Positions 5,912-64,000 of a stretch of 64,000 bases of DNA are shown here, one piece after another (positions within the stretch are counted from its first letter, which is position 1; the number at the start of each line of letters is the position of its first letter). The notes under the pieces are model-generated. The model had not been told where the DNA came from. It saw only the letters and a program-made list of their open reading frames with translations, and did no database searches. The translations under genes and the position numbers were made by a program. This DNA is from a virus. The stretch lies in UHGV virus genome UHGV-0311442, one strand, 5' to 3'.

Positions 5912-6535
5912 ATGGCTACGCGTTTACCACTCCAGGTACCGGTCAACACCACGGGACTGTTCAAAGTAAAAACACCATTTACTTTGGCCGAGACGGTCAT
6001 TTATACGGTAGAAGCGTCACGTACCTTCCCAGATTTAGTACGTCAGAATATTGACGTTTATAACTCGTATTACCAGCCAGTAGGGCTAGGACGTGAAGAA
6101 TATTTAGCAGATGCGAATGTTAGTGCGTCGATTCTGACATTTAAATCTCGGGACGGTCAAGTTGTATATATACCTGACACCTACCTGGAATCATACCCAG
6201 GTTTATCCGGGATCACGTATCAACGAAATGTGTTAGTGGTAGATTTGGCACTGGTACCGGATTACGTGAAAGTGTCGTCTATAACAAAAGACGTTTCAGA
6301 TATTCTCACGCATACACTAGGGATTGAGCCGAAAGTTGAAATTACAACACTCGAGTATGAGGGGAAGGTAACGGAGGAACAACACTTGCAGATGGAAGCG
6401 GCACGAAAAAATAAAATTCGTGAATCTATTCCATTAGGTGAGAAAGTTGCTGCGTTGACAGAAGAGAACAAAAAATTAAAAGAGTTAAACAACCAAATGT
6501 TAGAGATTCTTAAAGCTAACGGGTTAGTTAATTAA
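5912..6535 (+). CDS. hypothetical protein with C-terminal coiled coil (207 aa)
   Basis: GAGGAG RBS; C-terminus KVAALTEENKKLKELNNQMLEILK; followed by terminator. Confidence 0.55.
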   Translation: MATRLPLQVPVNTTGLFKVKTPFTLAETVIYTVEASRTFPDLVRQNIDVYNSYYQPVGLGREEYLADANVSASILTFKSRDGQVVYIPDTYLESYPGLSGITYQRNVLVVDLALVPDYVKVSSITKDVSDILTHTLGIEPKVEITTLEYEGKVTEEQHLQMEAARKNKIRESIPLGEKVAALTEENKKLKELNNQMLEILKANGLVN

Positions 6536-29654: not shown

Positions 29655-29667
29655 GGAGATTTTTTTG

Positions 29668-33849: not shown

Positions 33850-33887
33850 GACAGGCTGCCTGCGGGCAGTTGTGTGTCCGTAGGTAA

Positions 33888-33924
33888 CCCCTCCCTGTAA
33901 TGGGGAGGGGTATCCATTTTATTT
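33888..33924 (+). terminator. rho-independent terminator
   Basis: hairpin CCCCTCCC-tgtaa-TGGGGAGGGG followed by TATCCATTTTATTT. Confidence 0.55.
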
Positions 33925-33943
33925 AAAAGTAGGAGTCTTTACG

Positions 33944-36900
33944 ATGCCGAGAGAAGACGCGGCGCAGTTTAACGGTACGCTAAGCACAGCGACGTACCCT
34001 AACCGATTTAACGTGGTCATTCCGCCTGAAGGACCTTTTTATCGTATCGGATTAAAACTCACAGTAGCCGACGATACCGCGCCTAACGGACGTCGTACTC
34101 TGATTGAGGGGTTGGACTACTATTTAGGCTATTACTTTAAAGAACTCGCAGAAGCTGAGCAAGATCAGATTTACGGCGGGTTCATGTTGCTGACCGCAAC
34201 AGAAATCGAATATGAGATTTTAGGGGTAGCACGCCAGTATCGTGTACCACAATCTGAAATCGGAAAGTTCTTAGTTCGTACTGACCTGAAAGACCCACGT
34301 AACGTGGACTGGTCAGAGTTAATGGCGTATGCGCCAGTTATTCAACCCATCGATCCTCCTGCTAACTTAGAAGAAGCTATTCTGAGGGATGAGGTTGTTA
34401 AAGCGTTAAACGATATCCGTAAGAAAATCGTTCAACGTTCAACAGAGTTAGATGCAGCGTTTACCGAAGTCACTAACCTGATTTACGAGAACGGTAAAAA
34501 GGTTTTCGACGAGGAGTTATACCAACACCACCTTAATCCTAACGCACACCAGTATACGACCACTGATGTTGGTGCCCTTCCGGTTTTGGGACGTGCTGTC
34601 GACGCTACAAAAGCGTTTGGACTGACGATTGACGAATTGGCTACGCTGATGGGTTCGGCGGGTATTGAGCAATCAGACGTTGATCAGTTAATGGGTGAAG
34701 CCCTTGGTACCGTTTACGGTCGTTGGGGTAGCACAAACGGTAACGAGCTGACGTTTAAAACCGCAGGCGGACACATCATCAGTATCCGTGGTGATAAGTG
34801 GTTAATTACCTCACCGCAACCGTTGGTGATTAAAGCAGACCAGGACAACAACGAATCGGGTTTGGCGGTTGAATTTAGTGCGGGACTGAATACGCTTTGG
34901 GTGCACTCTGGGACAGAACAGGATGTATTAGCGCCGGTTTACAACTCTGTGTATTTGGTTACACCAGAAATGGTGAACATGTACCTGACGTCTGTAACGT
35001 TACTTGAAGCAAATGCCTATTTCAAACCATCAGACAGCGTAAAACCATACGGTACAGCGAAGCAGTCTAATCCGCTAACGTTGAACGCGAATATTCCCAC
35101 AGCAACCGAGTCGGTTTATGGGGTGTTTTCGATTACGAATATCGCAACCTCCGTAGCACTAGGCACTGCTATTTCCCAAAAGGCGGTGACCGAATTAAAA
35201 GACCGGTTAGACTTGTACGTTGACGATGACTACACGGTTAACGGTAAAGGGTTTGTTAAGACAGGCGATAAAATGGTGTTAACCTTAACGAAAACCGATT
35301 TCGGTATCGATAAGATGGATAACACCATGCCGATCGCTAAACCGGTAACAAAAGCGTTAGCGAATGTGCTGAAAAATAAAAGTGTGAAGGAGCACACGCA
35401 CACTACCGCCGATTTGGATAATGTCCCGATTGGTAGTGCGACTGTAGATGGTATTTTACAGTTGTGGGATGCGATTGATGCCACGAATGATAAAGCCGTC
35501 ACGTCTCGTCAAGGGTGGTTGTTCGCAAAAGAGATCAAGAAGGTTTCCGATAAACTGAATACCATCTTACCTGCGTGGACTGTCGGTGGGGCGAAGTTCG
35601 GTAACAAAAACTTCTTACCCATTCCGGCACTCGGTAATTATTCAGGTTTTACAAAGAACCAGTCCTATCAGAAAGGCGTTGTAGGATATCAACAAGGTAA
35701 AGTTTATTCGTTACGTAATGCTTCTAATGGTGTACCTGGTACAGAGGCTATTTATTACGGTTATGCTGATATCAATACGTCGAATGCATTTGAGAACCCT
35801 CAGCAAACTTCGGTGAAATACCATCCTGCTGGGATGAGTAAATATCCTGGAGTGACCTTAAAAGCTATTTTGATCGGTGGTCAGGAAGCGATTATTTGTC
35901 TGGGTTCTGACAATAACCGTTATCTGGTCTTGTTCAATGGCTCGATGGACCACAGTAAGCACACAGTGGTGTGCCGTGTTACAATGCCGAATTATCGCGA
36001 TAATAGTCCCACTGGTTCAAACGAGATTCCGTGGAATCCTCGGCCAGAATCTGACGATGTTGTTCTGGTTGACGACCACGTTTACCTTCTTCGCTCCACG
36101 GTAAATAACGCTGCTTATGCCGTGGCGGCATGGCGTTTACGTAAAGCCGATTTGTCTACTAATGTTGCGTTAGAATTTGAACGTGTAACGTTAAATGGTG
36201 AAATGGGACAATTCGGAGATAACCTCTGCCTAAGAATTGGCCAGAAGACCGAAGAGTCGCAGACTGGTCAATTCTTCACGTATTACCCACCCGAGGCACG
36301 GGCTAAATGGACAATCGGTCACAACTTTGTCCATGGTCCAGAATGTAACCATGCTTGTGCGGTGCGTGACAGTGTGATTCGTGTGAATCATGTACCCACT
36401 GTGTGGTTTGCGGCTGCCGACGGTTCGACGATTAATTTCCGTCAATGGTCAACAAGTTTCACAATCGATACGTTAACGGGTAGAGTTACGTTGGAGGGTG
36501 CCGAACGTTTCCCCATTAAGGCTGATACTACCACACTGACGTTCGCGGATGGTTCAACTGTAGAAACCAGTCGTAAGTGGGGCGGTGGTCAAGCAAACAA
36601 TCGTTGTTTTGCAACGTATGCTAAACCTAACGGCACCGGAATGATGCTTTCCTGTTGGCAGGTTAACGATGCGGACCAGATGCCGAATGTTTCTATTAAA
36701 GGAACGCAAGGCAAAGAGTTTTTCGATTATTTGCGTTACGATAACCCGAACAATACCTCAGGCGAAGGAACGTTTACTTGGGATAAAGGCCGTGGTTCTA
36801 TCTATACCATCGGTCTTTCTCATCCTGTCGGTATCGGTGGTTCGAATAAGGTTTGGCTATCCAATCCACGCAACCGTTATACGATCGAAGTAGAAGTTGA

Positions 36901-39127
36901 CCCAAGTAAACCTTATGACGTTCCTGGATATAGCGGTTATGGCCCGAACAACAACCGTCGAGAAGTTGATGCAACCCTTTACGAACAGTTAAGCTGTATG
37001 GCTGCTTGCATGACTCCAGAGGAGCGTCACGGCCAGTTAAACGGTTGGTATTTGACGAAAGCGGAAACCTTCCCATATCGAAACATCTACGGTAACTTTG
37101 CCCTGTCATCAGAACGGCTGACGTTAGAGGAAGCGGATCGCCAGAAGATGATTAGGATGATTGTCGATGGTGCACCATCTGGTCAGGCAAACGGTTACGC
37201 GAACGAGCGCATCAGCGCAGCACACCAAAGCGGTAACGCGTTGTTTGCGCTCTGGTTGCTAGGCATTAACACTGTTTGTGAGTTCGACTTATTACAAGTC
37301 TCATGCATGAAAATCTTGAGTAACGGACGTCGAGTTCTCGACATCTATTATTTCATGGTGAGTCCGACTAAAGAAAACGGTTATCTACGTTTTAACTCGG
37401 CTACTTTCAAACTCGTTGATTGGTTCTTAGACCTTGATTACGGCTTAAGTTATCAGTCTCTGAGGGAAGAAGCGGGTAATAAAACGCGACGTGTAGGCCA
37501 GCCAATTTTTGCTTCTGCCGACGGTGTAAACTTCGGTCTATGGCTACCTTATACGCTGACAATACGGAATATCGGGGACCTAAATGCTTTGGGTTACGCT
37601 GCGAAGTATACCTTCGACCCTGGGTCGGGTTGGACTCGCGTTCCCGGTAAGTCACAATTGCGTCGGATGGCCCCTGCTCATAATCCCGAAACAGGCTGCT
37701 ACATGGGTGCGGGTAATTGGGACAAGATGGCACTAATTTTCTCTAAAGCAGATCGTGTCTTCTGTTCAGGTAACGCATATACAGCCGAAGAGTTCGTTAA
37801 TGACACCAGATTCACAACTGGGGGACAGGCGGTTATTATCGCTGGTGTGGAAACTGCCGAAGGTTGGATTCTATATTTGACGGAAGAGGTCAGGTTAGAT
37901 TTCGGTAGTAATAGCTATACATTACCGACGTGGTTGGTGGATTTAAGCAATGAATTCCCAGAAAACCATGCTAACCAGACGTTCTATGTTCATGCTGCTC
38001 TTGTAGGTTCGAAAGCTCAATATCAGATCGGTCTGGAAAAGCTGCCGGATACGAGTTCGCGATTATTTGTTGGTACAGTTACAACCGATAAAAAGCGCAT
38101 AGTTGCTATTAACATCGATAAAGTGAAACGGTTAGGCAGGGTTCGTGAATTAGAAGAACACGCTGCTGTTAGAGATCAGCACGACGTTGCAGCGGCGTAC
38201 GATCGAAAAACGGGTCCACTCCAAACCTTGGTTAACCAACCGCTGAAAGCCCCCACGGCATCTGCGGGCAAGGGTGCAGGGTATGCCGATGGTCAGAGAT
38301 GGAATGCGTTGACCGGGATCACAACACGTCCCAAACTGCCGATACAGGAAACCTACGCAGGTTATAAAAGTATCGGTAGAGTAGCGTATGAGAACTGCGC
38401 TGATCAGTTCTGGCAGAAAGCGGTCGCTGCAAACGTTGCAGCGGCTACTGCGTCTGAGAACAGTCAAGCGGCAGCCGCGAACATGAAGTGGTTGGGCGCG
38501 TATACGAAACCGACTACAGGTGCGAATGCATATCTGGCGCTGAGTCTGCGTGTTAAAGTGCCTGGTAATCCCGGCACCGCTAATCGTAGACTAAAAATCA
38601 GGCTTGCGGCTCCGACAGGTATAACCCAAGTTCGTTACGGGTTAAACCAGTCTGGTGGCACGATGACTGAACAGACAGTAACGTTAACTGCTAACAGTTA
38701 TCTGGAAAAAGAACACGCCGGATTTAAGCCAGCCGAAGAAGTCCGTGTACATGCTACGTTTGTCATTCCAAAAAATGAATACGATAGCTACCGTACGAAG
38801 TTCGGTGCTGTTCAGCTGATTGACGTTGAGTCGAACACTGTCATTAAACAGACAGATATCGACACACCGTTTATCGTGTATACCGACACGGAGTTAGCAG
38901 CGCAATCTGGTTTGGTGTATAAAGCGGTTAAGGGTCAGTTCCATCAACTCCCGTCTCAACCTGTCGTCATTGTAACTGATGGACAGACAGGGACTACGCC
39001 ACCGGTGAAAACCTCGTTTGCTGACGGGACATTAACGGTCTACGTGGCAACCACGTACGATGCGGTTAACCCAGCACAAACCCGCGATATCGATAAGCTC
39101 CAGTTCAATCTTATGTTTACATCTTAA
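33944..39127 (+). CDS. tail fibre / receptor-binding protein (1727 aa)
   Basis: shares N-terminal GPFY...DYxLxY module; largest ORF of the operon. Confidence 0.6.
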   Translation: MPREDAAQFNGTLSTATYPNRFNVVIPPEGPFYRIGLKLTVADDTAPNGRRTLIEGLDYYLGYYFKELAEAEQDQIYGGFMLLTATEIEYEILGVARQYRVPQSEIGKFLVRTDLKDPRNVDWSELMAYAPVIQPIDPPANLEEAILRDEVVKALNDIRKKIVQRSTELDAAFTEVTNLIYENGKKVFDEELYQHHLNPNAHQYTTTDVGALPVLGRAVDATKAFGLTIDELATLMGSAGIEQSDVDQLMGEALGTVYGRWGSTNGNELTFKTAGGHIISIRGDKWLITSPQPLVIKADQDNNESGLAVEFSAGLNTLWVHSGTEQDVLAPVYNSVYLVTPEMVNMYLTSVTLLEANAYFKPSDSVKPYGTAKQSNPLTLNANIPTATESVYGVFSITNIATSVALGTAISQKAVTELKDRLDLYVDDDYTVNGKGFVKTGDKMVLTLTKTDFGIDKMDNTMPIAKPVTKALANVLKNKSVKEHTHTTADLDNVPIGSATVDGILQLWDAIDATNDKAVTSRQGWLFAKEIKKVSDKLNTILPAWTVGGAKFGNKNFLPIPALGNYSGFTKNQSYQKGVVGYQQGKVYSLRNASNGVPGTEAIYYGYADINTSNAFENPQQTSVKYHPAGMSKYPGVTLKAILIGGQEAIICLGSDNNRYLVLFNGSMDHSKHTVVCRVTMPNYRDNSPTGSNEIPWNPRPESDDVVLVDDHVYLLRSTVNNAAYAVAAWRLRKADLSTNVALEFERVTLNGEMGQFGDNLCLRIGQKTEESQTGQFFTYYPPEARAKWTIGHNFVHGPECNHACAVRDSVIRVNHVPTVWFAAADGSTINFRQWSTSFTIDTLTGRVTLEGAERFPIKADTTTLTFADGSTVETSRKWGGGQANNRCFATYAKPNGTGMMLSCWQVNDADQMPNVSIKGTQGKEFFDYLRYDNPNNTSGEGTFTWDKGRGSIYTIGLSHPVGIGGSNKVWLSNPRNRYTIEVEVDPSKPYDVPGYSGYGPNNNRREVDATLYEQLSCMAACMTPEERHGQLNGWYLTKAETFPYRNIYGNFALSSERLTLEEADRQKMIRMIVDGAPSGQANGYANERISAAHQSGNALFALWLLGINTVCEFDLLQVSCMKILSNGRRVLDIYYFMVSPTKENGYLRFNSATFKLVDWFLDLDYGLSYQSLREEAGNKTRRVGQPIFASADGVNFGLWLPYTLTIRNIGDLNALGYAAKYTFDPGSGWTRVPGKSQLRRMAPAHNPETGCYMGAGNWDKMALIFSKADRVFCSGNAYTAEEFVNDTRFTTGGQAVIIAGVETAEGWILYLTEEVRLDFGSNSYTLPTWLVDLSNEFPENHANQTFYVHAALVGSKAQYQIGLEKLPDTSSRLFVGTVTTDKKRIVAINIDKVKRLGRVRELEEHAAVRDQHDVAAAYDRKTGPLQTLVNQPLKAPTASAGKGAGYADGQRWNALTGITTRPKLPIQETYAGYKSIGRVAYENCADQFWQKAVAANVAAATASENSQAAAANMKWLGAYTKPTTGANAYLALSLRVKVPGNPGTANRRLKIRLAAPTGITQVRYGLNQSGGTMTEQTVTLTANSYLEKEHAGFKPAEEVRVHATFVIPKNEYDSYRTKFGAVQLIDVESNTVIKQTDIDTPFIVYTDTELAAQSGLVYKAVKGQFHQLPSQPVVIVTDGQTGTTPPVKTSFADGTLTVYVATTYDAVNPAQTRDIDKLQFNLMFTS

Positions 39128-39167
39128 CGCCACGAGACAAGGACGTCTCGGATTAAGGAGAGTGGCC

Positions 39168-40367
39168 ATGGCCTCCATTGTATATCAGTACCCTTTAGAT
39201 TTAACGGGAACCCTAACCTCTAACGCCGTGGAGCGTCAGGTTACGTTAGGTACAGGTAAAGTTAACCGTGCGTTTGCTTTTCCTGACGGACCGTTTTATG
39301 CTGATACGTTCCGCTTGCGGGTTGCCAATCGACCCGACGCGACGTATGAACGCGGAACGGACTATGAGTTGATTTTTGCACACCCGGGTTACGAGAAATT
39401 GACGAAGAACCGGGAAGTGGTAATGGCGGTTGTTGTAACGAACACCGCGATTCCGACCGATATCACGGTATCGGCGCAAGTAGTCGGTGGTCCGCAGTCT
39501 GCAAACGTGACTGCGATAGAACAGGCGATTGCCGAGTTGAATCTCGATAATCGAACTGTTGGCTTTAAAGACTTGCGAAATGTGCCGGACACGTTTCCTT
39601 CGGCACCAACGTATAAAGACGTCGGCGATATTTACGGCTTCGAATATATCATTACAGTGCTCGCTGGCATCAAAGATGCGATAACGGCGGGTGATGCTGT
39701 ACAGCTTGAGAACATCAAAGCGATTCTCGAAAGCCTGAAAAACGATTTCCTGGACGCGCTGAACGCGCACATTAACGCCACGGGTAATGTCCACCATCTG
39801 GATATTCATCAGGTTAACGGGTTAACAGAAACGGAGATCCGTGCACTTATCCGTGACGTACAATCTGCCATCGATGCAACCATTACTGATATTAATGCGT
39901 TGAAGAAAGCAGACGAAGCGTTAGGAAAACGTATTGATGCTGTTGTCAAATCTTTGGAAGCGTGGAACGACCAACTTAACATCGTTGCCCAAAACTACCA
40001 GAAGATGGCATTGGCATTGGCGAACCTAAATTCGCTAGTGTTACAGTTACAGAAAAATATCAACGATCTGAACACCAAACTCAACCAAGCGATTCAGCGC
40101 ATTGCTGCGTTAGAACAACGGGGTAATGAGTCCGATCAGAAAATTGATAATCTGCAACAAAACCTGGATGCGCTTAAACAACAGGTTGCGAATAACACGA
40201 ACGCAATCAGTCAGGCGAATCAGAACCTACAAAACCATATTGCGGCGGATAACCCGCACACAGGTTATCTCCACAAGAAATACGGCGGTGTGGTTCAGGC
40301 TCCAGTGCACGTTAACGCTAACTTGACGTCCCGTGATGACGTTCAGGCAGAAGCGGGTACGAAATAA
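39168..40367 (+). CDS. tail fibre-associated protein with C-terminal coiled coil (400 aa)
   Basis: start re-set to ATG 39168 with AAGGAGAG RBS; N-terminal FPDGPFY...DYELIF module; heptad-like Q/N/L-rich C-terminus. Confidence 0.55.
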   Translation: MASIVYQYPLDLTGTLTSNAVERQVTLGTGKVNRAFAFPDGPFYADTFRLRVANRPDATYERGTDYELIFAHPGYEKLTKNREVVMAVVVTNTAIPTDITVSAQVVGGPQSANVTAIEQAIAELNLDNRTVGFKDLRNVPDTFPSAPTYKDVGDIYGFEYIITVLAGIKDAITAGDAVQLENIKAILESLKNDFLDALNAHINATGNVHHLDIHQVNGLTETEIRALIRDVQSAIDATITDINALKKADEALGKRIDAVVKSLEAWNDQLNIVAQNYQKMALALANLNSLVLQLQKNINDLNTKLNQAIQRIAALEQRGNESDQKIDNLQQNLDALKQQVANNTNAISQANQNLQNHIAADNPHTGYLHKKYGGVVQAPVHVNANLTSRDDVQAEAGTK

Positions 40368-41448: not shown

Positions 41449-41597
41449 CTAAGCCCTCCAGTGGTAGTATGTCTATTACGCAATAACCGAGTTAATCGTA
41501 CGGGTTTACTACTGAGTTTCAAGTTACCGGTAGGCAATGGTGCGGTGGTTTCTATACCCTGAATGTCCGTTTGACCGTGAAATAATTGGAGCAATCA

Positions 41598-42485
41598 ATG
41601 AAGAATGATTTACATTTAGCGTACAAAACAATTTTCAATCATCCACTTCACATTTCTTCCCCTGATTCCGTACGTGCACACTTAGCAGATGAAGTTCGTC
41701 TGTTGACTCAGTTGCCGGGCGAATGGCCTAAAGTGCGCGGACGTTTCTTTACCGATCGTAAAAACTATCGTGTGGAAAATACGTTTAAGATTCGTGATCT
41801 GACGGCAGAAAGTGTAGTGGTCTTTACCGGTGACTCCGAGTTGCGTGGTAAACTGGTTGCGGGTAAATATTTCTTTAGTGACGGGATTTTGAATAACTCC
41901 GTAGATATGGAATTGTTCTTTACCCCATTTGAAGAAATGGGCGCAAAACCAGTTGCCCGTCGTTGGTGGTCGCCGGATTACTTAGGCTCGTTCCCGTATT
42001 TCTTTACCCTGGTAACACCAGAAACGAAGAACTATTTCGATACGGAATCGTATATCGAAATTGAAGGGTACGAAGCGTTAGGGATTAATTGCTTAGCGGA
42101 TTTAATGGCGTATAGCTATAAGTTCGTGTGGGATCGTGAACGTTCCGTGTGGGTTGCCCTGACGGATGAACACGAAATTACAAAACGCATCCGTAAGCCT
42201 TGGATGCAGCATTTGATTCAAACGCGTATTGGCGAGCATCCGTCAACAGAAGCGGATCTGGCAAAACTCGTTAGTTTCTTAATGACGAAAGTCACGTTAA
42301 CTGACGAAGAGAAAGCAGCAGTGTCGGCGGTGTTGGACCGTAACGTAACGTTAGCGGATTTAGAACGTTTAAATGTCCGTTATAAAGACCTTAATCGTAT
42401 TTTGGAAGCGTATAACTCTCCATTCTTGTTAACCCCTGGTGCTAACGTAGACGACGATCCTTTGTTCGCCATTGATTATATTTAA
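41598..42485 (+). CDS. hypothetical protein (295 aa), cassette accessory
   Basis: GGAG RBS before ATG 41598; sits between precursor genes and radical SAM genes. Confidence 0.5.
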   Translation: MKNDLHLAYKTIFNHPLHISSPDSVRAHLADEVRLLTQLPGEWPKVRGRFFTDRKNYRVENTFKIRDLTAESVVVFTGDSELRGKLVAGKYFFSDGILNNSVDMELFFTPFEEMGAKPVARRWWSPDYLGSFPYFFTLVTPETKNYFDTESYIEIEGYEALGINCLADLMAYSYKFVWDRERSVWVALTDEHEITKRIRKPWMQHLIQTRIGEHPSTEADLAKLVSFLMTKVTLTDEEKAAVSAVLDRNVTLADLERLNVRYKDLNRILEAYNSPFLLTPGANVDDDPLFAIDYI

Positions 42486-42506
42486 AAACGACCGGAGTCA
42501 CCTGCA

Positions 42507-43430
42507 ATGACAACCAATGCAGAACCAAGGTTATCGAATCGTTTATACGATAAACCCACCGTATTGTCCGTAGTCGCTACGTCCAAGTGTAACCTGGATT
42601 GTAGCTTCTGCGGTGGAGCCTATTACATGAATCGTGAAGATTCTCCGCGAGAGTTTCAACGTGAGCGAATTTTGGAAGCGCTGGAAGCTAATCCAACCAT
42701 TACCGAAATTCAGTGGACGGGTGGTGAGCCATTACTGGCAACCCGTAAAATTGAGGCGTTTGTTGACGAATTAAAAGTGATTCGTCCAGAACTCAAACAC
42801 CAGTTGTATACCAATGGCTTAAAGATGCGTAAATCGCATCTCCCGTTGCTAAAACAGTTTGACAATGTCTACGTTAGCATCGATGGGTTTAAGTCGTCTG
42901 AGCGCCCGTTTATGCGCTTTATTGACGAAGGCTGTTACGAAGCACTGGAAACGATCTACGAGCTGGATAATGTCCAGACTTGGGGTGTCCTGACACGGGA
43001 CCGTTTAGGGGACAAACGCTGGCACGAAGATATTATTCAGCTGCACAGCGCGATTTACCATTACGGTTTCCGTGCAATGACGTTACTCTTAGATGCGAAA
43101 ATGCCAAAACCTTTATCGCCTGACCACGTCATGAACTTTATTTACGGCTACTATCAGGTTCAGGACAACATTGAACGTCTGAATGTAGTAAATGGACGTG
43201 AATGTGGCTTTACGGTAAGTAAAGTGTTTGAAGAAGGGTGTAACGTTTGCAGCGAAAGTCTTTGGATTAATGCAGACGGTGGTGAGCACCAACTCCAGAA
43301 TGCACCTAACGTTCTGGAATCGGGATGTAACCAACTGGCCTTCTCTATCGGTGTAGAGGCGTACGAATATATTCGTCGCGTAGTGATGGCAGGACGTAAT
43401 AGAGGGGCGGCAAATGAGCCAAGCAAATGA
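42507..43430 (+). CDS. radical SAM enzyme (307 aa)
   Basis: CNLDCSFCGG (CxxxCxxC) and GGEPLL SAM-binding motif; extra C-terminal Cys (CNVCSE...GCNQ). Confidence 0.7.
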   Translation: MTTNAEPRLSNRLYDKPTVLSVVATSKCNLDCSFCGGAYYMNREDSPREFQRERILEALEANPTITEIQWTGGEPLLATRKIEAFVDELKVIRPELKHQLYTNGLKMRKSHLPLLKQFDNVYVSIDGFKSSERPFMRFIDEGCYEALETIYELDNVQTWGVLTRDRLGDKRWHEDIIQLHSAIYHYGFRAMTLLLDAKMPKPLSPDHVMNFIYGYYQVQDNIERLNVVNGRECGFTVSKVFEEGCNVCSESLWINADGGEHQLQNAPNVLESGCNQLAFSIGVEAYEYIRRVVMAGRNRGAANEPSK

Positions 43431-44736
43431 ATTCCCTAAGCAGTTAACGTATCAGATCGTAACCAACCTTTCGTGTAACCTGGACTGCGAATATTGTTAC
43501 GAACGTAAGTACCCGCGTAACAACAAAGCGGCCGACATTGTTGATTTCTTACACGCCTGTTTTGAACGTGATAAAAACGAACCGAATGTTGAAGTTATTA
43601 TCGACATTATCGGCGGTGAACCGTTCATGCAGCCTAAGTTGCTGCTGGCAGCGTTTGAAACCGCAGAGCAGTTGTGTAAAGAACACAACCGTCCGTTTAT
43701 GTTTAGTATCTCCACGAACGGGACCTTGTTAGATCGTCCGTTGAACCGTGAGATTGTAGAACGTTGGAAAGACAAACTTTCGGTTGGGGTTTCGATTGAT
43801 GGCTTGCCTGAGTCCCATGACCGTTATCGTATCTTCACAACAACGCGCCAGGGTTCTTACGAAGCCGCAGTACGTGGCTATAATTACTTAAAAGAGGTTG
43901 GCATTGCAGAACTCGGCGTAAAAGCGACCTTTACGTTAGAAACACTGCCGTTCTATGCTGCAGGGATGAAGTCATTAATTGACATTACTGGCGGTGGGAC
44001 AATTTCTGGGAACGTAACCTTCGAAGACGTTATGCCACGTAGCATGGCGACGTCAATCGCTTTACAGATGATGGATGTGATAGATTATTGGGTTGAGAAA
44101 GGATTACACACCAACCCACGTAATATCTTATCGCACATCATTCCAGAAGGGTTGGATTTCGATACGATTTGGGAACCGAACTGGCGTGACCAGTTACTGT
44201 ATAATGACACCGTACGGTTGAACCCAGAACGTTTACGTCCGTTCTGTGGGACGTTAACGCACATGACGTGCTTAGGATTTGACCGTAAGATCTTTGGCTG
44301 TAACCGCTTTATGTCAACGGTAACGTCGCGTTCTGCGGTGTTTGAGTTGGTAGGTCGGGAATTCGTCAGTCTGGACAACGGTAAATTGTTAGAAGAGATT
44401 CAAACGCAATATACCAACTACCCAGAGACCTGTTTAGGTTGTCCGATGAAACACGCTTGTGGTAGCTGTGCGGCGGCTTCTTACGAGAACGGGGAAGGAA
44501 CGTTAGAAGACCGTAAAGCGTATCACGCTGAACGTCGTCAGTGTGGCTGGACGACAGCGAAACTGATGGTGGCGGAATACTGGAAACAGAAGATGGGTAC
44601 GACGTCAGCAAAAGCGTTCCACGACACGAGCATGTGTTATTGCCCACGCTGTGTTCGTGAACGTGCCCAAAAGGAAAAATTATTAAGAGAAGCCAAAGAT
44701 GAAACCAATTCTGATCAACAATATTACGAAGCGTAG
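43414..44736 (+). CDS. radical SAM enzyme with SPASM-like C-terminal domain (440 aa)
   Basis: CNLDCEYCYE and GGEPF motifs; C-terminal CLGCPMKHACGSC cluster typical of SPASM/twitch auxiliary Fe-S domains; 17-nt overlap with upstream gene. Confidence 0.7.
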   Translation: MSQANEFPKQLTYQIVTNLSCNLDCEYCYERKYPRNNKAADIVDFLHACFERDKNEPNVEVIIDIIGGEPFMQPKLLLAAFETAEQLCKEHNRPFMFSISTNGTLLDRPLNREIVERWKDKLSVGVSIDGLPESHDRYRIFTTTRQGSYEAAVRGYNYLKEVGIAELGVKATFTLETLPFYAAGMKSLIDITGGGTISGNVTFEDVMPRSMATSIALQMMDVIDYWVEKGLHTNPRNILSHIIPEGLDFDTIWEPNWRDQLLYNDTVRLNPERLRPFCGTLTHMTCLGFDRKIFGCNRFMSTVTSRSAVFELVGREFVSLDNGKLLEEIQTQYTNYPETCLGCPMKHACGSCAAASYENGEGTLEDRKAYHAERRQCGWTTAKLMVAEYWKQKMGTTSAKAFHDTSMCYCPRCVRERAQKEKLLREAKDETNSDQQYYEA

Positions 44737-55294: not shown

Positions 55295-55592
55295 TACCTC
55301 CTTTGGCAATCCAGGTCGCCACACGCACATGAGCGTCTTGAAAAGACGATATGAGCAAGATCACACCGCCTAACGTACGAGGGACGCGTAAGGCTTCGTA
55401 ACGACGGCAGTAAGAACGTACGCAATACTCGGAACCTAAGATAACGATTTCGCAGTATTCTGAACGAATAGGTAGTAGTTGAGAAACGAGTTTATCGCAC
55501 GTTTCTTTATTGTCTTCTAACAACCCACCACGGAGAATATAGTTGACAATGTTCTCAGGTACCGATGTGTTTGTGATTTTACTTTCCATCAT
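55281..55592 (-). CDS. hypothetical Cys-containing protein (103 aa)
   Basis: AGGAG RBS. Confidence 0.5.
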   Translation of the reverse strand: MMESKITNTSVPENIVNYILRGGLLEDNKETCDKLVSQLLPIRSEYCEIVILGSEYCVRSYCRRYEALRVPRTLGGVILLISSFQDAHVRVATWIAKGGNSGF

Positions 55593-55978
55593 TAAACTCC
55601 TATAGTGATCTCCGTAATGTGCATTCTTCGCATCTCACGGGTCATTCTGTCTATTGCTCGTTGACACTCGAATAAATTGTCGTAGTATTTCTGGGCGGTA
55701 ACGTTGAATATAATCCGACCTTCTTTCAATTGTTTAGCAACGACTTTTGTAGTTTCCGATTCAAACAGCAAACCACCTTCCCTGCCGATCTTAACTAAAA
55801 CGTCACGAATGATAACGTTTATAAGCTCACCATTTGGGGAAACCACGATTTCCGTATACCAATCGCCCTCGCTAACGATACGTTGTACCCTTTCACCGCA
55901 TAGCCAGTTTTTAACTTTCCCGTTAACATACAGTTGGGCTTTCAGTAACAAACGTCTTTTAATGTAAGATAAACGCAT
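55592..55978 (-). CDS. hypothetical protein (128 aa), paralog of 55982..56356
   Basis: shared GDWYTEI...IGREGG...F...TAQ core. Confidence 0.55.
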   Translation of the reverse strand: MRLSYIKRRLLLKAQLYVNGKVKNWLCGERVQRIVSEGDWYTEIVVSPNGELINVIIRDVLVKIGREGGLLFESETTKVVAKQLKEGRIIFNVTAQKYYDNLFECQRAIDRMTREMRRMHITEITIGV

Positions 55979-55981
55979 CTT

Positions 55982-56356
55982 TTAAACCTCCACCGTAGTT
56001 CGTTCAGTTTCTTTAATAAACTTACTAAGCGATTCATTTAAACGTTTTACTCTTTCACCAAACTTAACTACTGTATCGTAAAGGCATTGTGCTGTACCGT
56101 TAAATAAAATCGGACCGTTTTTTAACTCCAGGGCAGAAACTTGATAGTATTCAGAGTTGAAGATTGCTCCTCCCTCGCGTCCTATTCTAACAACTACGTT
56201 ACGAACTTGTATGTTTTGTAACCCACCGTTTGCTAACGTAATAATCTCTGTATACCAGTCACCCGATTTAACTACCGTTGTGACATTCTTGCCGCAAGCC
56301 CAGGTTTTAAACGAAGTGTCTAGCCAACATCTGAATTTGTATAACAGTAATGACAT
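55982..56356 (-). CDS. hypothetical protein (124 aa), paralog of 55592..55978
   Basis: GGAGGAG RBS; see above. Confidence 0.55.
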   Translation of the reverse strand: MSLLLYKFRCWLDTSFKTWACGKNVTTVVKSGDWYTEIITLANGGLQNIQVRNVVVRIGREGGAIFNSEYYQVSALELKNGPILFNGTAQCLYDTVVKFGERVKRLNESLSKFIKETERTTVEV

Positions 56357-58658: not shown

Positions 58659-60785
58659 TTAAATAACTACCCAGCTTTTACCATCGGAGCCAACTTGCAT
58701 TAGCGTAATACTTTCAGTGGTCTCAATGGGTTTGGCAAGACCTTCCGTCCCACCCTTTGGAGTGATGAGAACGTTCGAATTTTGCGGTTTAACGGTGATC
58801 GAACCAGCCTTATTTGCCACGATCTGTATATTTCTACCCACGCTATATTCTAGATCAGGAATAGTAAGTTGGCCGCCACGGTTGGTGGCTGGGAAATACA
58901 CATAAGACGATACATCTTCCTCAGATAACACTATACTACCAGAATCACGATTGACCGAGATCTCAAACTTAGAAATATCGATATCGTAGGCAGTAACTTT
59001 CGTAATATCTGTCAGAACCAATTCGTTCAAATTGGTCTTAGCTGTACTGTTCGCCAGATCAAATGGAGTGCCATTCTTGCCGTCAAGCACAGGCGTGACT
59101 TTGATTTTATTGTCACCCGGATAAATGATTTCAAACGTATGCCAGTTATTATCGTACGCACCAAAAGTTCCTAATTGCACATTCTGCTTTTTATGATGCA
59201 TCAGATAAAGATTCGTACCGTCGGTCTGTAAGAAAAAAGACATTAAGTACGGGTTCGTATCAGCCACACCAGCGTCAGCAAGTGTAGTACCAGAAGGTAG
59301 GTCGGACGCGGAAATACGCCAATAAAGTCCTAATCCGAAACGATCTGCTGCTAAATCACCTTTTAGTCTAAAAGTAACGGTCAGACGTCCACCGTAACGT
59401 ATCATGTCCGCAGCAGATGTCATTGACTTAGTTACATTCCAAGGTTTCATCGTTACAGCCTTTCTTAATTCGACGAAATGCCCGTTTCCATCCTCAGAAT
59501 CTTGCACGGTTACGTTACAATCAACGATATTGTTCCAACCCTGCCCTTTCAGGGAACCATCTCCACGACGTCCGTTATAACCCACAGACTCTACTAATGG
59601 GGTATAGCTTCTTACCACATTCATATTGTCTTTGAGCTCTTTAGTGTCGTTCTTCGTCAGGAGCATTGCACCATTCGCTGTTCTTGATAATATCTCAGCA
59701 GCTATTCTCTCTGAGATAATACCGCGTCGTGCCCAAGAACTGAAATGGCTATTCCTTGTTTCAGACGTCCAGTTTTTATTACTACGGGTGGCAGCACCGT
59801 AGTAGGCAGCACCAGCGATATCAGGATCGTCAGTGGGATCATTAGTCGGTACACGTTGGCCATTATCGTCGTACATGAATGGAACAAAAAAGATATTTTT
59901 TTGTTCATTGTTACGATAATTACCGTATATGGTTTCATATTGAACAGGATATTTTTCCTTCCAATAGTAGGTAGTGTCCCCGCAGATCCATGGTACTTCG
60001 GCGGTGTCGTACTCGGGCATCTGAGAGAGATGGTCAGAGAGATCAGTTCGGAAACGCTCTACCATTGCCATAAATAACGCTGGTTGTTGTGCGTAACCTA
60101 CTTTAGTCAGATCATACTCCCCCTGCATCCACACTACAGCCAAGAGTTTATTTTTAGGATTAACGTCCAGAGCTTTTTTGGTCCGGCTAACTAAATCTTT
60201 ATAAAGAGGTTTTTCCACCCCCCATACCGATGACGTCGCAGAGGCTCCTGTGGCTTCATCGAAGGTACCTTCTGCACCACCCGTGAAAGCAGAACCGCCG
60301 CGTGCGCAGGGTACTAGTAAGATACCAGCGTTGCTAGGAATATACGGGAGAAGACGCTTCGCGATGTGTAGACCTTGACCCACACATCCGTATTCACCTT
60401 TGTCCAAATTGGCTTTGGGGTGCGAGAATACGGACATATCTTGCACGTCGTGCAGACAGTGATCCGCTGGAATGACGTCGTTATACTTACAATCAGCACC
60501 ATTAGGCGTTACCTTCGCACGGCGCGCCATTTGTTTAATCCGCGGATCGGGAGCGTCCAACGTCGCTGGTAAAGGCAATCCTTCACCATAACTCATCGCA
60601 TTAGATTGCCCGGCTATAGGGATCACGAAGTAATAATCCGGTTCCGTCACCCCCCCCCCTTGAAGTTCTGCAATATCAATTTTATATTCTTTTTCTTCCT
60701 TAGAAAGGAGAACTACCGCACCTTTGAGATCGCCAGAGAAATTGTCGAGTTCATGGATACGTTTCTTTCCAATTGGTTGAACCAT
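58659..60785 (-). CDS. tail-associated SASA/SGNH-type carbohydrate O-acetylesterase with C-terminal beta-rich domain (708 aa)
   Basis: N-terminal FVIPIAGQSNAMSYGEG (GQSN motif); GGAGGT RBS before ATG 60785; adjacent to fibre genes. Confidence 0.6.
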   Translation of the reverse strand: MVQPIGKKRIHELDNFSGDLKGAVVLLSKEEKEYKIDIAELQGGGVTEPDYYFVIPIAGQSNAMSYGEGLPLPATLDAPDPRIKQMARRAKVTPNGADCKYNDVIPADHCLHDVQDMSVFSHPKANLDKGEYGCVGQGLHIAKRLLPYIPSNAGILLVPCARGGSAFTGGAEGTFDEATGASATSSVWGVEKPLYKDLVSRTKKALDVNPKNKLLAVVWMQGEYDLTKVGYAQQPALFMAMVERFRTDLSDHLSQMPEYDTAEVPWICGDTTYYWKEKYPVQYETIYGNYRNNEQKNIFFVPFMYDDNGQRVPTNDPTDDPDIAGAAYYGAATRSNKNWTSETRNSHFSSWARRGIISERIAAEILSRTANGAMLLTKNDTKELKDNMNVVRSYTPLVESVGYNGRRGDGSLKGQGWNNIVDCNVTVQDSEDGNGHFVELRKAVTMKPWNVTKSMTSAADMIRYGGRLTVTFRLKGDLAADRFGLGLYWRISASDLPSGTTLADAGVADTNPYLMSFFLQTDGTNLYLMHHKKQNVQLGTFGAYDNNWHTFEIIYPGDNKIKVTPVLDGKNGTPFDLANSTAKTNLNELVLTDITKVTAYDIDISKFEISVNRDSGSIVLSEEDVSSYVYFPATNRGGQLTIPDLEYSVGRNIQIVANKAGSITVKPQNSNVLITPKGGTEGLAKPIETTESITLMQVGSDGKSWVVI
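60650..60659 (-). repeat. G10 homopolymer tract inside the esterase coding sequence (codons for GGGV)
   Basis: ten consecutive C on plus strand; in frame as given. Confidence 0.85.
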
Positions 60786-61106
60786 TGTAACCTCCAATTT
60801 TTAAACCAATACTCTTCCGGTTAGCGCGACATGCCGTTCTGTGATAAGGCAGTACTAACGATAAGTTTAACCGGGGTTTGTTCTTCCGTAATAGGGATTT
60901 CATCGAGATTGTTGATATCAATAGTAACATCATGGACTTTAGGCATTGTTACCAAGATAGTCAACATTACCACCGATGCTTTTGTGGAAGTATCCGCAAC
61001 GTAATATTTAACGTCCAGTAATTCGTTACTTTCAGATAAGTAGAGTATTTGCGGATAGATTGTTATCAATGTAAAAAAAATACCAACGCCATTTAAGTTT
61101 TAGCCA

Positions 61107-61622
61107 TTAATGATCTCCGAAGGTTAATGCACAATTATCTGCGGTAACGATTAAATCGTCGTCTTTTGTTACTGCGGCTTCTTCACTGTTACCGAAAACC
61201 AGAACAGAGAATTGACCTTTATAACCTAATGAATTAGGTGATACCTGTAACGTTACCGCGTCTTTTCCTACAGTGAAAGAATCATCTGTTAGATCTTCAG
61301 CTTGTAAGTTACTGCCACAAGCTGCGTTAATCGCTTCGATTAAATCGTGTGTGGTAAACCCTTCCCCGGCTACTTTTACCAGAATAGGTTGCTGGTTTAA
61401 CCACCGCTCTGCGGTTAAACGGTTGTAATAGATCTGCAACGTTCTGTTTCCAGGACGCTTAATCTTTACAACGGCAGTGGTATCACGATTCATTTCTTCA
61501 GTAGGATTTACGTTGCTGAACTCAACCTCGTTTTCTTGCAGATCGAGCTGAAGGTCGTAGTTGATCAGCGATATAACCATGTTAGTTGAAGTTAATGATA
61601 AATCTGGTGTGAATTGCCCCAT
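61107..61622 (-). CDS. five-member paralog family protein (171 aa)
   Basis: start re-set to ATG 61622 with GGAGGT RBS; LINYDL...HDLIEAINAACG pattern. Confidence 0.5.
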   Translation of the reverse strand: MGQFTPDLSLTSTNMVISLINYDLQLDLQENEVEFSNVNPTEEMNRDTTAVVKIKRPGNRTLQIYYNRLTAERWLNQQPILVKVAGEGFTTHDLIEAINAACGSNLQAEDLTDDSFTVGKDAVTLQVSPNSLGYKGQFSVLVFGNSEEAAVTKDDDLIVTADNCALTFGDH

Positions 61623-61720: not shown

Positions 61721-62224
61721 TTAACTAATTCTCAAATCACGTAGTGCGCCTGTTGACTTCATCACGTTTTGGAACGCAGCGCTGATGTTATTAGTCCAGT
61801 AGTAATGCTGTCCGTTAATAACCTGCTGATAGGCCAGCGCGCAGGTGTTGCCACCTAAATTTACGGTAATGTTAGAGGCTCTGCCTCCTTGTAAGTAAAC
61901 CGCTAAAGTAGGCTTTGCGTTGGTAAATATCGTCGTTAGCATTAACTCGATACCTATTAAAGTCCCCACCCCGCAGTTACCCGCGTTTTGAATGGTCCCC
62001 TGATTTTTCTGGTTTAACGGCCAGCTTGGTCCTACTGCGCCCCATTTATTACCTAAAGAATCGCTATATGCAGCGGTTGCAATTTTACAGCCCATAGATC
62101 GTCCCACCATTTGACTCATCATAAAAGGTCTACCCAATCCTAATTTACTACCCGCAGCGCTCATCCATTGTTGGCCAGTTTCATTCTTAGCTGAAGATCC
62201 GTCCCATCCTGACGCTACCCCCAT
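61721..62224 (-). CDS. Gly-rich putative tail fibre accessory protein (167 aa)
   Basis: AAGGAGGG RBS; N-terminal GWDGSSAKNETGQQWMSAAG shared with 62241..63032. Confidence 0.5.
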   Translation of the reverse strand: MGVASGWDGSSAKNETGQQWMSAAGSKLGLGRPFMMSQMVGRSMGCKIATAAYSDSLGNKWGAVGPSWPLNQKNQGTIQNAGNCGVGTLIGIELMLTTIFTNAKPTLAVYLQGGRASNITVNLGGNTCALAYQQVINGQHYYWTNNISAAFQNVMKSTGALRDLRIS

Positions 62225-62240
62225 CTACCCTCCTTTTTAA

Positions 62241-63032
62241 TTAAACACGTGAACCGTATATTGCACCTACTGCGTCCCATCTTGGCGCATTACCAGTAAC
62301 AGCTGCACCAGCTGCTCCGCCGTTATATTCTGTACCGTTACCTTGAGTATTACATCTTCCTCCACCAGCACCGACATTACCACCCGAACCGCCTGTATAT
62401 GCACTAAGAGACCCCTCACCAACAGATCCTCTACCAGGAGCGGAAATAGTACCAGCAGCCGCACCGGAACTCATATGAGAGGAAGACCCACCAGCACCGA
62501 ATGGGCGACCACCGCCACCACCAAATATTAGTCTACCCCTGTTACCGCCGCCACCGCCGCCACCGCCTCCGGCAATAGCGCCACGGTTGGTTATACGCAG
62601 TCTGTTTCCTATTCCGTTCTGTACTGCGGTTCCACCTGCACCGCCTGGCGAGTTAGAACCACCGTTGCCTCCTCTGCCGTATACTGTAACCCCAGGATTG
62701 ATGATGAGTGTAATATACGAATTTGGAAGATTGCTAGGGAATTCTAAACAAGGAACCCCGCTACTATAAGACACTAAATCCCCTGTAATGGTCACAACGA
62801 CAGCAGTAGAGCCTAAAGAACGTAAATAGTTAATAAGCGTATCTTTATTGTAATTGTGATTAGCTCCGATCGAATACTGAACCTCTTTTGATTTTCCCGC
62901 CAATTGCGACATCCAGCCTGGAACCGGCACACCGAGTGTGCGCATCGCGCCAGACATCCAACCATTACCAGCTTCAGCTTTTGCTGAAGAACCAATCCAT
63001 CCGGGAGTCGCTGATACAGACAAAATAACCAC
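62241..63032 (-). CDS. Gly-rich protein with poly-Gly tracts (263 aa), start uncertain
   Basis: GGGGGGGGGNRG tract; N-terminal GWIGSSAKAEAGNGWMSGA; GTG start without clear RBS, preceded by a perfect hairpin. Confidence 0.45.
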   Translation of the reverse strand: MVILSVSATPGWIGSSAKAEAGNGWMSGAMRTLGVPVPGWMSQLAGKSKEVQYSIGANHNYNKDTLINYLRSLGSTAVVVTITGDLVSYSSGVPCLEFPSNLPNSYITLIINPGVTVYGRGGNGGSNSPGGAGGTAVQNGIGNRLRITNRGAIAGGGGGGGGGNRGRLIFGGGGGRPFGAGGSSSHMSSGAAAGTISAPGRGSVGEGSLSAYTGGSGGNVGAGGGRCNTQGNGTEYNGGAAGAAVTGNAPRWDAVGAIYGSRV

Positions 63033-63078
63033 CTTATAACGTACTTGTGAGTCAGTGAGGGGAACCCCTCACTGATAA

Positions 63079-64000
63079 TTATAACTTGTTCTCGATTATC
63101 TCCGCCAACTCCTTTATTGCCTCAATAAGTAGAGCTATTTGGGCAGAGTTAGAGACCGTTAAAACGTCCTCACCATTAGCGTCTTTATAAGTAGAAACTG
63201 CTTCAGGTAACACTTTTTGTAAGGTCTGTGCTACAACGCCAGCCTCACGATGAACATTAGTGGATTTAAAGTTCTCCTTTTTGTCGTATATTAAACCTGA
63301 CAATTCCTTTACCTTCTCCAATGCATTAGTTATTGGAGAGAAATTACTTTTCAGCCGGGCGTCAGATCGTATATAAACGTCGTTAAAGTTACCGTTCCCA
63401 CCACAAACCCAAGTACCGTCGTTTTGCAAATAAGCATTGGCATCGGTGCCATTATCAGTACGTGAGTTGTTTATCATGTAAAAGCCGAATTGATAGTTAC
63501 CTAAACCACCAACAAAAAATTTCCTATCAGCATGGTCTTGTCTTAACAATGCCTGAGCAGAACTGGTTCCTACCGGATTAAGACCAAAAATAACGTTATG
63601 GTCTCTCATGCTAATCCAAGAACCTGAGTTGCTGTTAATAGAATATCTATTTGCATAAACCCAAGTATTGGTTCTTATATCTCCGGTAACGTTGAGAGGT
63701 TTATTGCTTTGAACAGCCCCACTCGTAAAGCGTAAAACATGAGCATTATTGGCGTAAACATCTAGAACGCCATCCCCGTTCTGCTTAAAGCCGGTGTCAT
63801 TATCCCCTAAAACTATGGAGTTCCCACCTAAAGCATTGGCGGTTCCAATACCCAATGCTCCATTCAATTGACCGCCAGATAATGGCAACGCCCCAACGTC
63901 GGCAGCAGTTGGCTTGTTTCTCGTATTGTACACGCGACGCCAACCTGGTGAGTAAGTATCGCCGTTAAATACGTAGATAAACTCCGCATTAGTGAGTGCG
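63079..64000 (-). CDS. tail fibre protein C-terminal portion with S74-type intramolecular chaperone domain (5' part beyond window)
   Basis: PTAADVGALPLSGGQLNG fibre motif; SDARLK autoprocessing motif followed by coiled coil; ORF runs off window end. Confidence 0.65.
   Translation of the reverse strand, partial: ALTNAEFIYVFNGDTYSPGWRRVYNTRNKPTAADVGALPLSGGQLNGALGIGTANALGGNSIVLGDNDTGFKQNGDGVLDVYANNAHVLRFTSGAVQSNKPLNVTGDIRTNTWVYANRYSINSNSGSWISMRDHNVIFGLNPVGTSSAQALLRQDHADRKFFVGGLGNYQFGFYMINNSRTDNGTDANAYLQNDGTWVCGGNGNFNDVYIRSDARLKSNFSPITNALEKVKELSGLIYDKKENFKSTNVHREAGVVAQTLQKVLPEAVSTYKDANGEDVLTVSNSAQIALLIEAIKELAEIIENKL

Follow-up and report, generated by a model that had tools for sequence, protein, structure and literature searches.

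A probable cleavable tail-fibre tip of the T2/S16 type, with two Gp38-family adhesin genes, in an SPN3US-related giant phage

In the 64,000-nucleotide stretch of the virus genome UHGV-0311442 analysed here (hereafter the window), a minus-strand open reading frame (ORF), closed by a TAA stop codon at 63081-63079 and open to the window edge at 64000 with 306 codons visible, would be the 3′ end of the long tail-fibre gene of a giant myovirus-like phage. The protein ends in an S74-type self-cleaving intramolecular chaperone (IMC) domain, and two genes for adhesins of the Gp38 family lie downstream on the same strand. Taken as a whole, the arrangement probably constitutes a cleavable fibre tip of the type known from phages T2 and S16, with two alternative Gp38 adhesins, in a phage related to SPN3US; the nature of the terminal domain is held with more confidence than this mechanism in its entirety, and the use of both adhesins with less.

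As the mechanism is envisaged, three fibre chains would associate and the IMC would nucleate folding of the trimeric distal domain that precedes it. Ser212 (numbering from the window edge), activated by Lys217, would then cut the chain between Arg211 and Ser212 and the chaperone would be discarded. The autoproteolytic release of such domains follows trimerisation, as in K1F. The new C-terminus, ending in NGNFNDVYIR, would form a blunt fibre tip on which a single Gp38-family adhesin would dock by its N-terminal domain with two Trp residues, as solved for S16.

The chaperone domain and its cleavage site

The original prediction for this ORF, made from the sequence alone, was of an S74-type chaperone self-cleaved after fibre trimerisation, and it has stood up well, with self-cleavage itself remaining predicted. 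Three independent tests, a profile match, a Ser-Lys dyad and a fold, establish the identity of the 95-residue domain (63082..63366, minus strand), which is the extreme C-terminus of the fibre protein with the stop codon directly after it. The translation contains YIRSDARLKSNF. A hidden Markov model search aligns residues 212-268 with positions 1-57 of the 58 in the Pfam model Peptidase_S74 (PF13884, ‘chaperone of endosialidase’), scoring 57.6 bits where the gathering cutoff is 22 (E 1.5e-15), a result far beyond chance. The match begins at the dyad motif S212-D-A-R-L-K217, in which Lys (codon 63349-63351) is five residues past Ser (codon 63364-63366). Among 67 aligned relatives, gathered by means of the last 110 residues of the fibre, Ser and Asp are each present in 63 and Lys in 66, the exceptions being gene calls that are truncated N-terminally. 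HMMER alignments place the same region against SSDRRIK of S16 gp37 (6f45_A), SDERLK of the tail fibre 8jov and DLRAK of the MyRF ICA domain (7dc3).

The third test is a structure prediction limited to the last 110 residues and run with a deeper alignment. The resulting AlphaFold2 model (predicted local distance difference test, pLDDT, 86.7; predicted template modelling score, pTM, 0.74) has two beta-hairpins and a 22-residue C-terminal helix at model residues 88-109. What had been described as a coiled-coil tail would, in the model, be this helix, IMC domains being small alpha/beta folds that typically finish in a long helix, bundled in the trimer. When the model was compared with the PDB by Foldseek, ranks 1-11 were all IMC or ICA domains, with MyRF first (7dc3; E 1e-5, template modelling (TM) score 0.69) followed by K1F endosialidase (3gw6) and GA-1 (3gud). 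Across these matches the TM-score to the query is 0.5-0.7 and the Foldseek probability 0.94-1.0, at a sequence identity of 12-26%.

Cleavage at DVYIR^SDARLK, between Arg211 and Ser212, is predicted to release a 95-residue peptide. S16 gp37 autocleaves at DLNVS^SDRRIKK after trimerisation, losing a 113-residue IMC and exposing the surface on which Gp38 docks, and the equivalent site in the T2-like fPS phages is DVYIR^SDGRLKI (PMC7917993). The window site, DVYIR^SDARLKS, is nearly identical to the latter.

A conserved tail coupled to Gp38_N

The original prediction had missed the T2/S16-type gp37-gp38 system, in which cleavage makes a docking site, and the presence of two adhesin genes. How regularly such a fibre end accompanies the docking domain of Gp38 can be seen in a sample of 83 loci, the window and 82 others fetched by the Gp38_N motif, bearing in mind that this sample, drawn from no more than the 80 best IMG/VR matches, is not free of bias. 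An ORF ending in S74 is directly upstream of the adhesin gene in 70 of the 83 and one small gene away in a further 12, leaving a single locus without one nearby, so that the coupling is near-universal in the sample. The pairing is also found in T-even-like phage genomes and in SSU5-like phage-plasmids.

In almost all fibres adjoining Gp38_N the ten residues before the cleavage site are NG[SN]FNDV[YQ]IR, with ^SD following, and this tail is constant while the domain upstream of it and the IMC downstream vary widely. To judge from the sequences, this is what a docking surface should look like.

Two adhesin genes in tandem

The first adhesin gene is separated from the fibre stop codon by an intergenic gap of 55 nucleotides. 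It encodes 260 residues (62241..63023, minus strand) from a TTG start at 63023, at the equivalent of which the homologue in one close relative, L006, has ATG. The product consists of a Gp38_N docking domain with two Trp residues and a polyglycine-rich receptor-binding domain (Pfam GP38 5.8e-69, Gp38_N 9.9e-12), and it matches S16 gp38 (6f45_D) at E 7.5e-50. Identity to gp38 of Krischvirus, Tequatrovirus and the phage-plasmid CMS-2020a is 66-80%, and over parts of the gene nucleotide identity to gp38 homologues reaches 90%. In known phages adhesins of this long, polyglycine-rich T2/S16 type bind outer-membrane proteins.

The second gene (61721..62224, minus strand) encodes a shorter protein of 167 residues with the same kind of docking domain (Pfam Gp38_N 1e-18; phrog_1121 ‘tail fiber adhesin’, 6.7e-44) and a C-terminal domain that is different and not Gly-rich. 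A PDB sequence search with it gave no match. Its homologues include the annotated adhesin of Stx phages P13374 and 75/02, at about 60% identity, and that of a CMS-2020a isolate, at 62%; SSU5_022 and Karamvirus-like adhesins are more distantly related. The type thus occurs in Stx phages, SSU5-like phage-plasmids and T4-like phages as well. The motif GW.GSSA....G..WMS, with its two Trp residues, does not vary among the long and short adhesins from the window, the relative L003 and SSU5; what the Trp residues do in the docking domain has been described (PMC7917993). Sequence considerations suggest that either adhesin could tip the same fibre.

The close relatives are uncultured: L003, a contig of 224,826 bp, comes from a Salmonella Typhimurium assembly, and L004-L006 and L012 are IMG/VR contigs, 150-225 kb. 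In these five 150-225 kb contigs the order is fibre, long Gp38, short Gp38 and a gene for a DUF7941 protein. The tandem adhesins occupy 61721-63023 (minus strand) in the window, 10867-12182 in L003 and 6001-7356 in L006. The window and its five giant-phage relatives all have the tandem Gp38_N pair, as against only two of the 77 other sampled loci (L028 and L031). Both ORFs are intact in the window. This conservation of tandem long and short adhesins in the lineage is the only feature that is mildly novel; the rest is ordinary biology. A literature search for links of SPN3US or SSU5 to gp38, or for work on two adhesins, found nothing relevant, and exact-protein look-ups of both adhesins and of P0001, a gene call that extends the fibre fragment (see below), returned no record.

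The fibre body as a mosaic

What can be seen of the mature distal tail fibre (fragment residues 1-211; 63367..64000, minus strand, the gene running past the window edge) is recognized from PDB sequence matches and PHROG families. Residues 2-64 resemble the Mu S/S′ collar (8ju3_A residues 294-361), and residues 55-113 include a GDNDTG segment similar to S16 gp37 (6f45_A residues 21-79). For residues 89-217 the match is to residues 320-447 of Mu tail fibre S (5yvq_A; E 8.4e-37), and within this the mature distal domain, residues 89-211, is some 60-65% identical to its Mu S counterpart and ends in the pre-cleavage tail. Several PHROG tail-fibre families match the fragment, the best being phrog_22609 (E 9e-76, profile positions 878-1170 of 1184). 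Mu-type fibres run on past ‘YVRDVRLG’ into a tip of their own; in the window the IMC starts at the corresponding ‘YIRSDARLK’. The alignment of the two sequences is possibly a relic of one junction.

Nucleotide similarity to the fibres of Salmonella phage SSU5 and Escherichia phage CMS-2020a (73-74%) ends at 63361, right at the Ser212 codon, beyond which those phages have a different IMC variant, SDRRSKRNIRK.... Because the similarity ends at the cleavage-site codon, the IMC is taken to be a cassette, swapped at the conserved DVYIR/SD junction. Other boundaries are seen among the giant-phage relatives. L004 and L005, the closest at 96.7% nucleotide identity, diverge upstream of 63900 and L003 upstream of 63854, and L006 matches the window edge (64000-63890) at 92% before continuing into a distal domain that is different and shorter and an IMC that also differs. 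From these boundaries, together with those of SSU5 and CMS-2020a, it follows that distal domain, IMC and adhesin have been swapped as separate cassettes.

The missing N-terminus and the genome

The extension of the contig that had been proposed for recovering the fibre N-terminus was not achieved. The only gain came from P0001, a Logan gene call of 343 residues that is 100% identical to the window fragment and adds 37 residues; of 76 positions in the sequence so extended, 70 agree with the L006 fibre. No copy of the window edge turned up when viral_contigs, genome_contigs and metagenome_contigs were scanned with exact 54-mers. The homologous C-termini in L003 and L006 are those of intact ORFs, 1,555 and about 1,480 residues long, whose products start MAKAVKKIRLH... 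and continue with a coiled-coil stretch and then repeated GNQxTTGNAATATKLQTAR units. Should the rest be like L006, the sequence points to a window fibre of about 1,560 residues. The NCBI assembly records only a 269-residue product for the intact 1,555-residue fibre ORF of L003 (6143-10810), and the short products on record for homologues (P0003 and P0004) probably under-call the gene.

The window genome is that of a giant phage distantly related to Seoulvirus (SPN3US/SPFM), with 72.6% nucleotide identity in radical-SAM genes and scarcely any similarity of DNA elsewhere. The radical-SAM gene pair and its neighbours (41586-44736, plus strand) are the only long stretch with such similarity to Seoulvirus, Proteus phage 7 and related giant phages.

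Alternative explanations

The proposed mechanism has several points to contend with. Cleavage and docking in the window phage are extrapolated from S16 and T2-like phages, and the pre-cleavage tip is unlike GGGAIYCRDLNVS of S16, the only solved complex. The fibre is cut by the window, its intactness and N-terminal anchor being read from L003 and L006, and the monomer AlphaFold2 model of the whole 306-residue fragment (pLDDT 52.6) is too poor for tip geometry. In Mu, moreover, the domain so similar to the window distal domain precedes the receptor-binding tip, and the fibre body itself might contribute to binding.

The alternative that survives best, though it is unlikely, is that just one of the two adhesins is functional, the other being a decaying duplicate or spare cassette, with a single specificity as the result. 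The rarity of tandem Gp38_N genes outside the lineage would fit this. On the other hand neither ORF shows damage, both keep the docking motif, and all five related contigs preserve the order, even though nucleotide divergence is 80-97% and the surroundings have undergone mosaic replacement.

Less probable again is that the fibre binds its receptor itself through the Mu S-like domain with the IMC serving folding alone, as in T5 pb1 and K1F endosialidase, and that the Gp38 proteins serve another fibre or act transiently. The strength of the match of residues 89-217 to the Mu S domain is in its favour, as is the existence of many S74-ended fibres that have no Gp38 partner, S74 being widespread. 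Yet the Mu-type receptor-binding tip that should follow is absent, with the IMC in its place; the Gp38 genes are immediately downstream on the same strand; and S74-Gp38_N adjacency in 82 of the 83 loci goes with a pre-cleavage tail that is conserved, as a docking surface would be.

It is very unlikely that the Gp38-family proteins are assembly chaperones like T4 gp38 (‘distal long tail fiber assembly catalyst’) and not virion adhesins. Several database records do call homologues ‘assembly catalyst’ or ‘tail fiber assembly protein’, and the ‘catalyst’ labels are legacy annotation carried over from T4. The long protein, however, is homologous over its length, polyglycine-rich receptor-binding domain included, to the solved S16 adhesin, and with an IMC of its own the fibre has less need for a separate folding chaperone. 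Least credible of all is that the ORF is a truncated or pseudogenised fibre remnant, to which the 306 visible codons and the short gene-caller products of close homologues (343, 269 and 176 residues) might seem to point, since the frame is open to the window edge, the homologous C-termini of L003 and L006 sit in intact long ORFs, and the P0001 extension keeps matching the L006 fibre.

With a T2/S16-type cleavable tip retained as the preferred explanation, a more speculative extension of it can be set out, on which the balance of opinion is somewhat unfavourable. In this giant-phage lineage one fibre tip may accept either of two structurally different adhesins with a docking domain in common, so that a virion with multiple fibres would mix tips and recognize two receptors, and the conserved tail together with Gp38_N may be a universal plug-and-socket that moves among T-even phages, Stx podophages, phage-plasmids and giant phages. 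If true, both receptors (for instance an outer-membrane protein plus another) would be recognized without two fibres having to be encoded.

Comparison with known systems

The closest counterparts in mode of action are the gp37-gp38 tip of Salmonella phage S16 (6F45) and those of T2-like phages, among them the Yersinia phages fPS-2/65/90. In these too the fibre gene ends in an S74 IMC with S-D-x-R-x-K, and a gp38 gene encoding Gp38_N and a polyglycine-rich domain is immediately downstream; the cleavage motif of the fPS phages, DVYIR^SD, equals that of the window. The differences are in the setting. The window backbone is that of an SPN3US-related giant phage and not of the Straboviridae; the fibre of its relatives is apparently a single protein of about 1,500 residues with its own N-terminal anchor in contrast to a gp34-gp37 chain; the distal domain is Mu S-like; and there are two tandem Gp38-family genes where the others have one. 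By backbone and fibre architecture the module thus falls outside the gp34-gp35-gp36-gp37 long tail fibres of Straboviridae. At the level of sequence it has every attribute of a T2/S16 tip and would work like one, without being a T-even long tail fibre.

Among cultured phages the best matches to the fibre tip, at 64-68% amino acid identity, are in the SSU5-like phage-plasmids. In SSU5 itself SSU5_021 (1,260 residues) is followed by a short adhesin, and CMS-2020a isolates have either a long adhesin (80% amino acid identity to that of the window) or a short one (62%). Unlike the window they have one adhesin each, and their IMC is of a different variant.

The IMC of K1F endosialidase (3GW6), the GA-1 neck appendage (3GUD) and the MyRF ICA domain (7DC3) share with the window domain the Pfam family, the Ser-Lys dyad, the fold and a position at the C-terminus of a fibrous protein. 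The difference is that the cleaved tip in the window is predicted to recruit a separate adhesin and not to be the final binding or enzymatic surface. With tail fibre S of Mu and P1 (5YVQ, 8JU3; Tfa chaperone U) it is the distal domain that is shared, ALLRQDHADRKFFVGGLGN.QFGFYMINNSRT.NGTD...W.CG being common to both. The window fibre, though, is without a Mu-type tip after the ‘YVRDVRLG’ equivalent, homology ending at residue 447 of the 504 of Mu S, at the IMC junction, and Pfam searches show no Tfa-family gene downstream in the window, where Gp38-family and DUF7941 genes are found instead.

Given the related backbone, Seoulvirus might have been thought to have the same module already. Its candidate is SPFM19_00097 (L083 27833-30010, minus strand), which has GP38-type polyglycine-rich and DUF7941 domains. 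These, however, are fused in one protein of 725 residues with DUF7941 N-terminal, there is no Gp38_N, no S74 fibre is annotated adjoining it, and BLASTP similarity to the window Gp38 is negligible, so that the possibility was rejected.

Neighbouring genes and RNA elements

The ORF had also been placed, with Gly-rich and esterase genes, in a second fibre module oriented oppositely to a plus-strand fibre operon. The minus-strand module is borne out by the identity of the Gly-rich protein as a Gp38 adhesin, by an anchor of 41 residues in the esterase and by a terminator after the esterase gene. The plus-strand fibre operon (25332-40367) could not be confirmed: its genes match only PHROG ‘virion structural protein’ families, with no Pfam fibre domain and, save for weak coiled-coil-type matches in the last gene, no Pfam domain. 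They are four consecutive genes (1440, 1394, 1727 and 435 residues; plus strand), paralogues with a common phrog_2163-type N-terminal region, and syntenic with SPFM19_00081-84.

Beyond the short adhesin gene the minus-strand module continues with a stand-alone gene for a DUF7941 virion protein of 171 residues (61107..61622, ATG at 61622; Pfam DUF7941 4.9e-17, PHROG ‘virion structural protein’). In L003 DUF7941-like genes precede genes with the anchor motif twice. An ORF of 82 residues without a family match follows (60821-61069, minus strand), and then a gene for a SASA-type carbohydrate esterase with DUF6645, 709 residues long (58659..60785, minus strand; Pfam SASA 8.4e-11, DUF6645 3e-29). 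The esterase shares homology in its first 41 residues (60663-60785, minus strand) with the N-terminal end of the L003 long fibre (E 3e-7), and by tblastn these residues match three L003 genes including that for the long fibre (2597-2719, 6143-6265 and 12798-12920), with the motif K+.R[IL]H.L....G.....V.L.SK..K.Y+. To go by these similarities, several receptor-binding proteins probably have in this motif a shared anchor for attachment to the virion, and the esterase is probably a second, enzymatic receptor-binding protein of the module. The esterase gene and the 82-residue ORF upstream of it (58659-61069) are absent from L003 and L006, which have there a 206-residue gene with the anchor motif (L003 12798-13418). 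This replacement is the mark of a receptor-binding protein cassette swap.

A terminator scan found a hairpin resembling an intrinsic terminator 3′ of the esterase gene (58655-58621, minus strand), with a 16-bp stem and then a T-run; it is the only strong site of its kind on the minus strand and closes the module. RNA folding showed another hairpin, perfect, GC-rich and of 10 bp, between the fibre stop and the Gp38 start (63052..63075, minus strand; centroid fold -18 kcal/mol, z = -2.1 for a 76-nucleotide stretch), which is kept in L003 with one extra C. Since it lacks a T-run and the scan passed it over, a terminator function was discarded; the hairpin could be an RNA stability or processing element. 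Further along the minus strand, at 55592-56356, two adjacent paralogous genes (128 and 124 residues) both have GDWYTEI...R[DN]V.V+IGREGG.

Significance

Current understanding of S74 chaperones and Gp38 adhesins is left unchanged by these findings. What they provide, for an uncultured SPN3US-related giant phage, is a firm annotation of its host-recognition module, with a predicted cleavage site and the parts that bear on host range. They also bring out its modularity: distal domain, chaperone and adhesin are each swapped at sharp boundaries, one of them exactly at the cleavage-site codon, while the ten-residue tail and the adhesin docking domain are constant across the swaps. Such plug-and-socket logic is useful for host-range engineering, and the tandem adhesin genes, one long and one short, suggest how dual specificity might be had cheaply.

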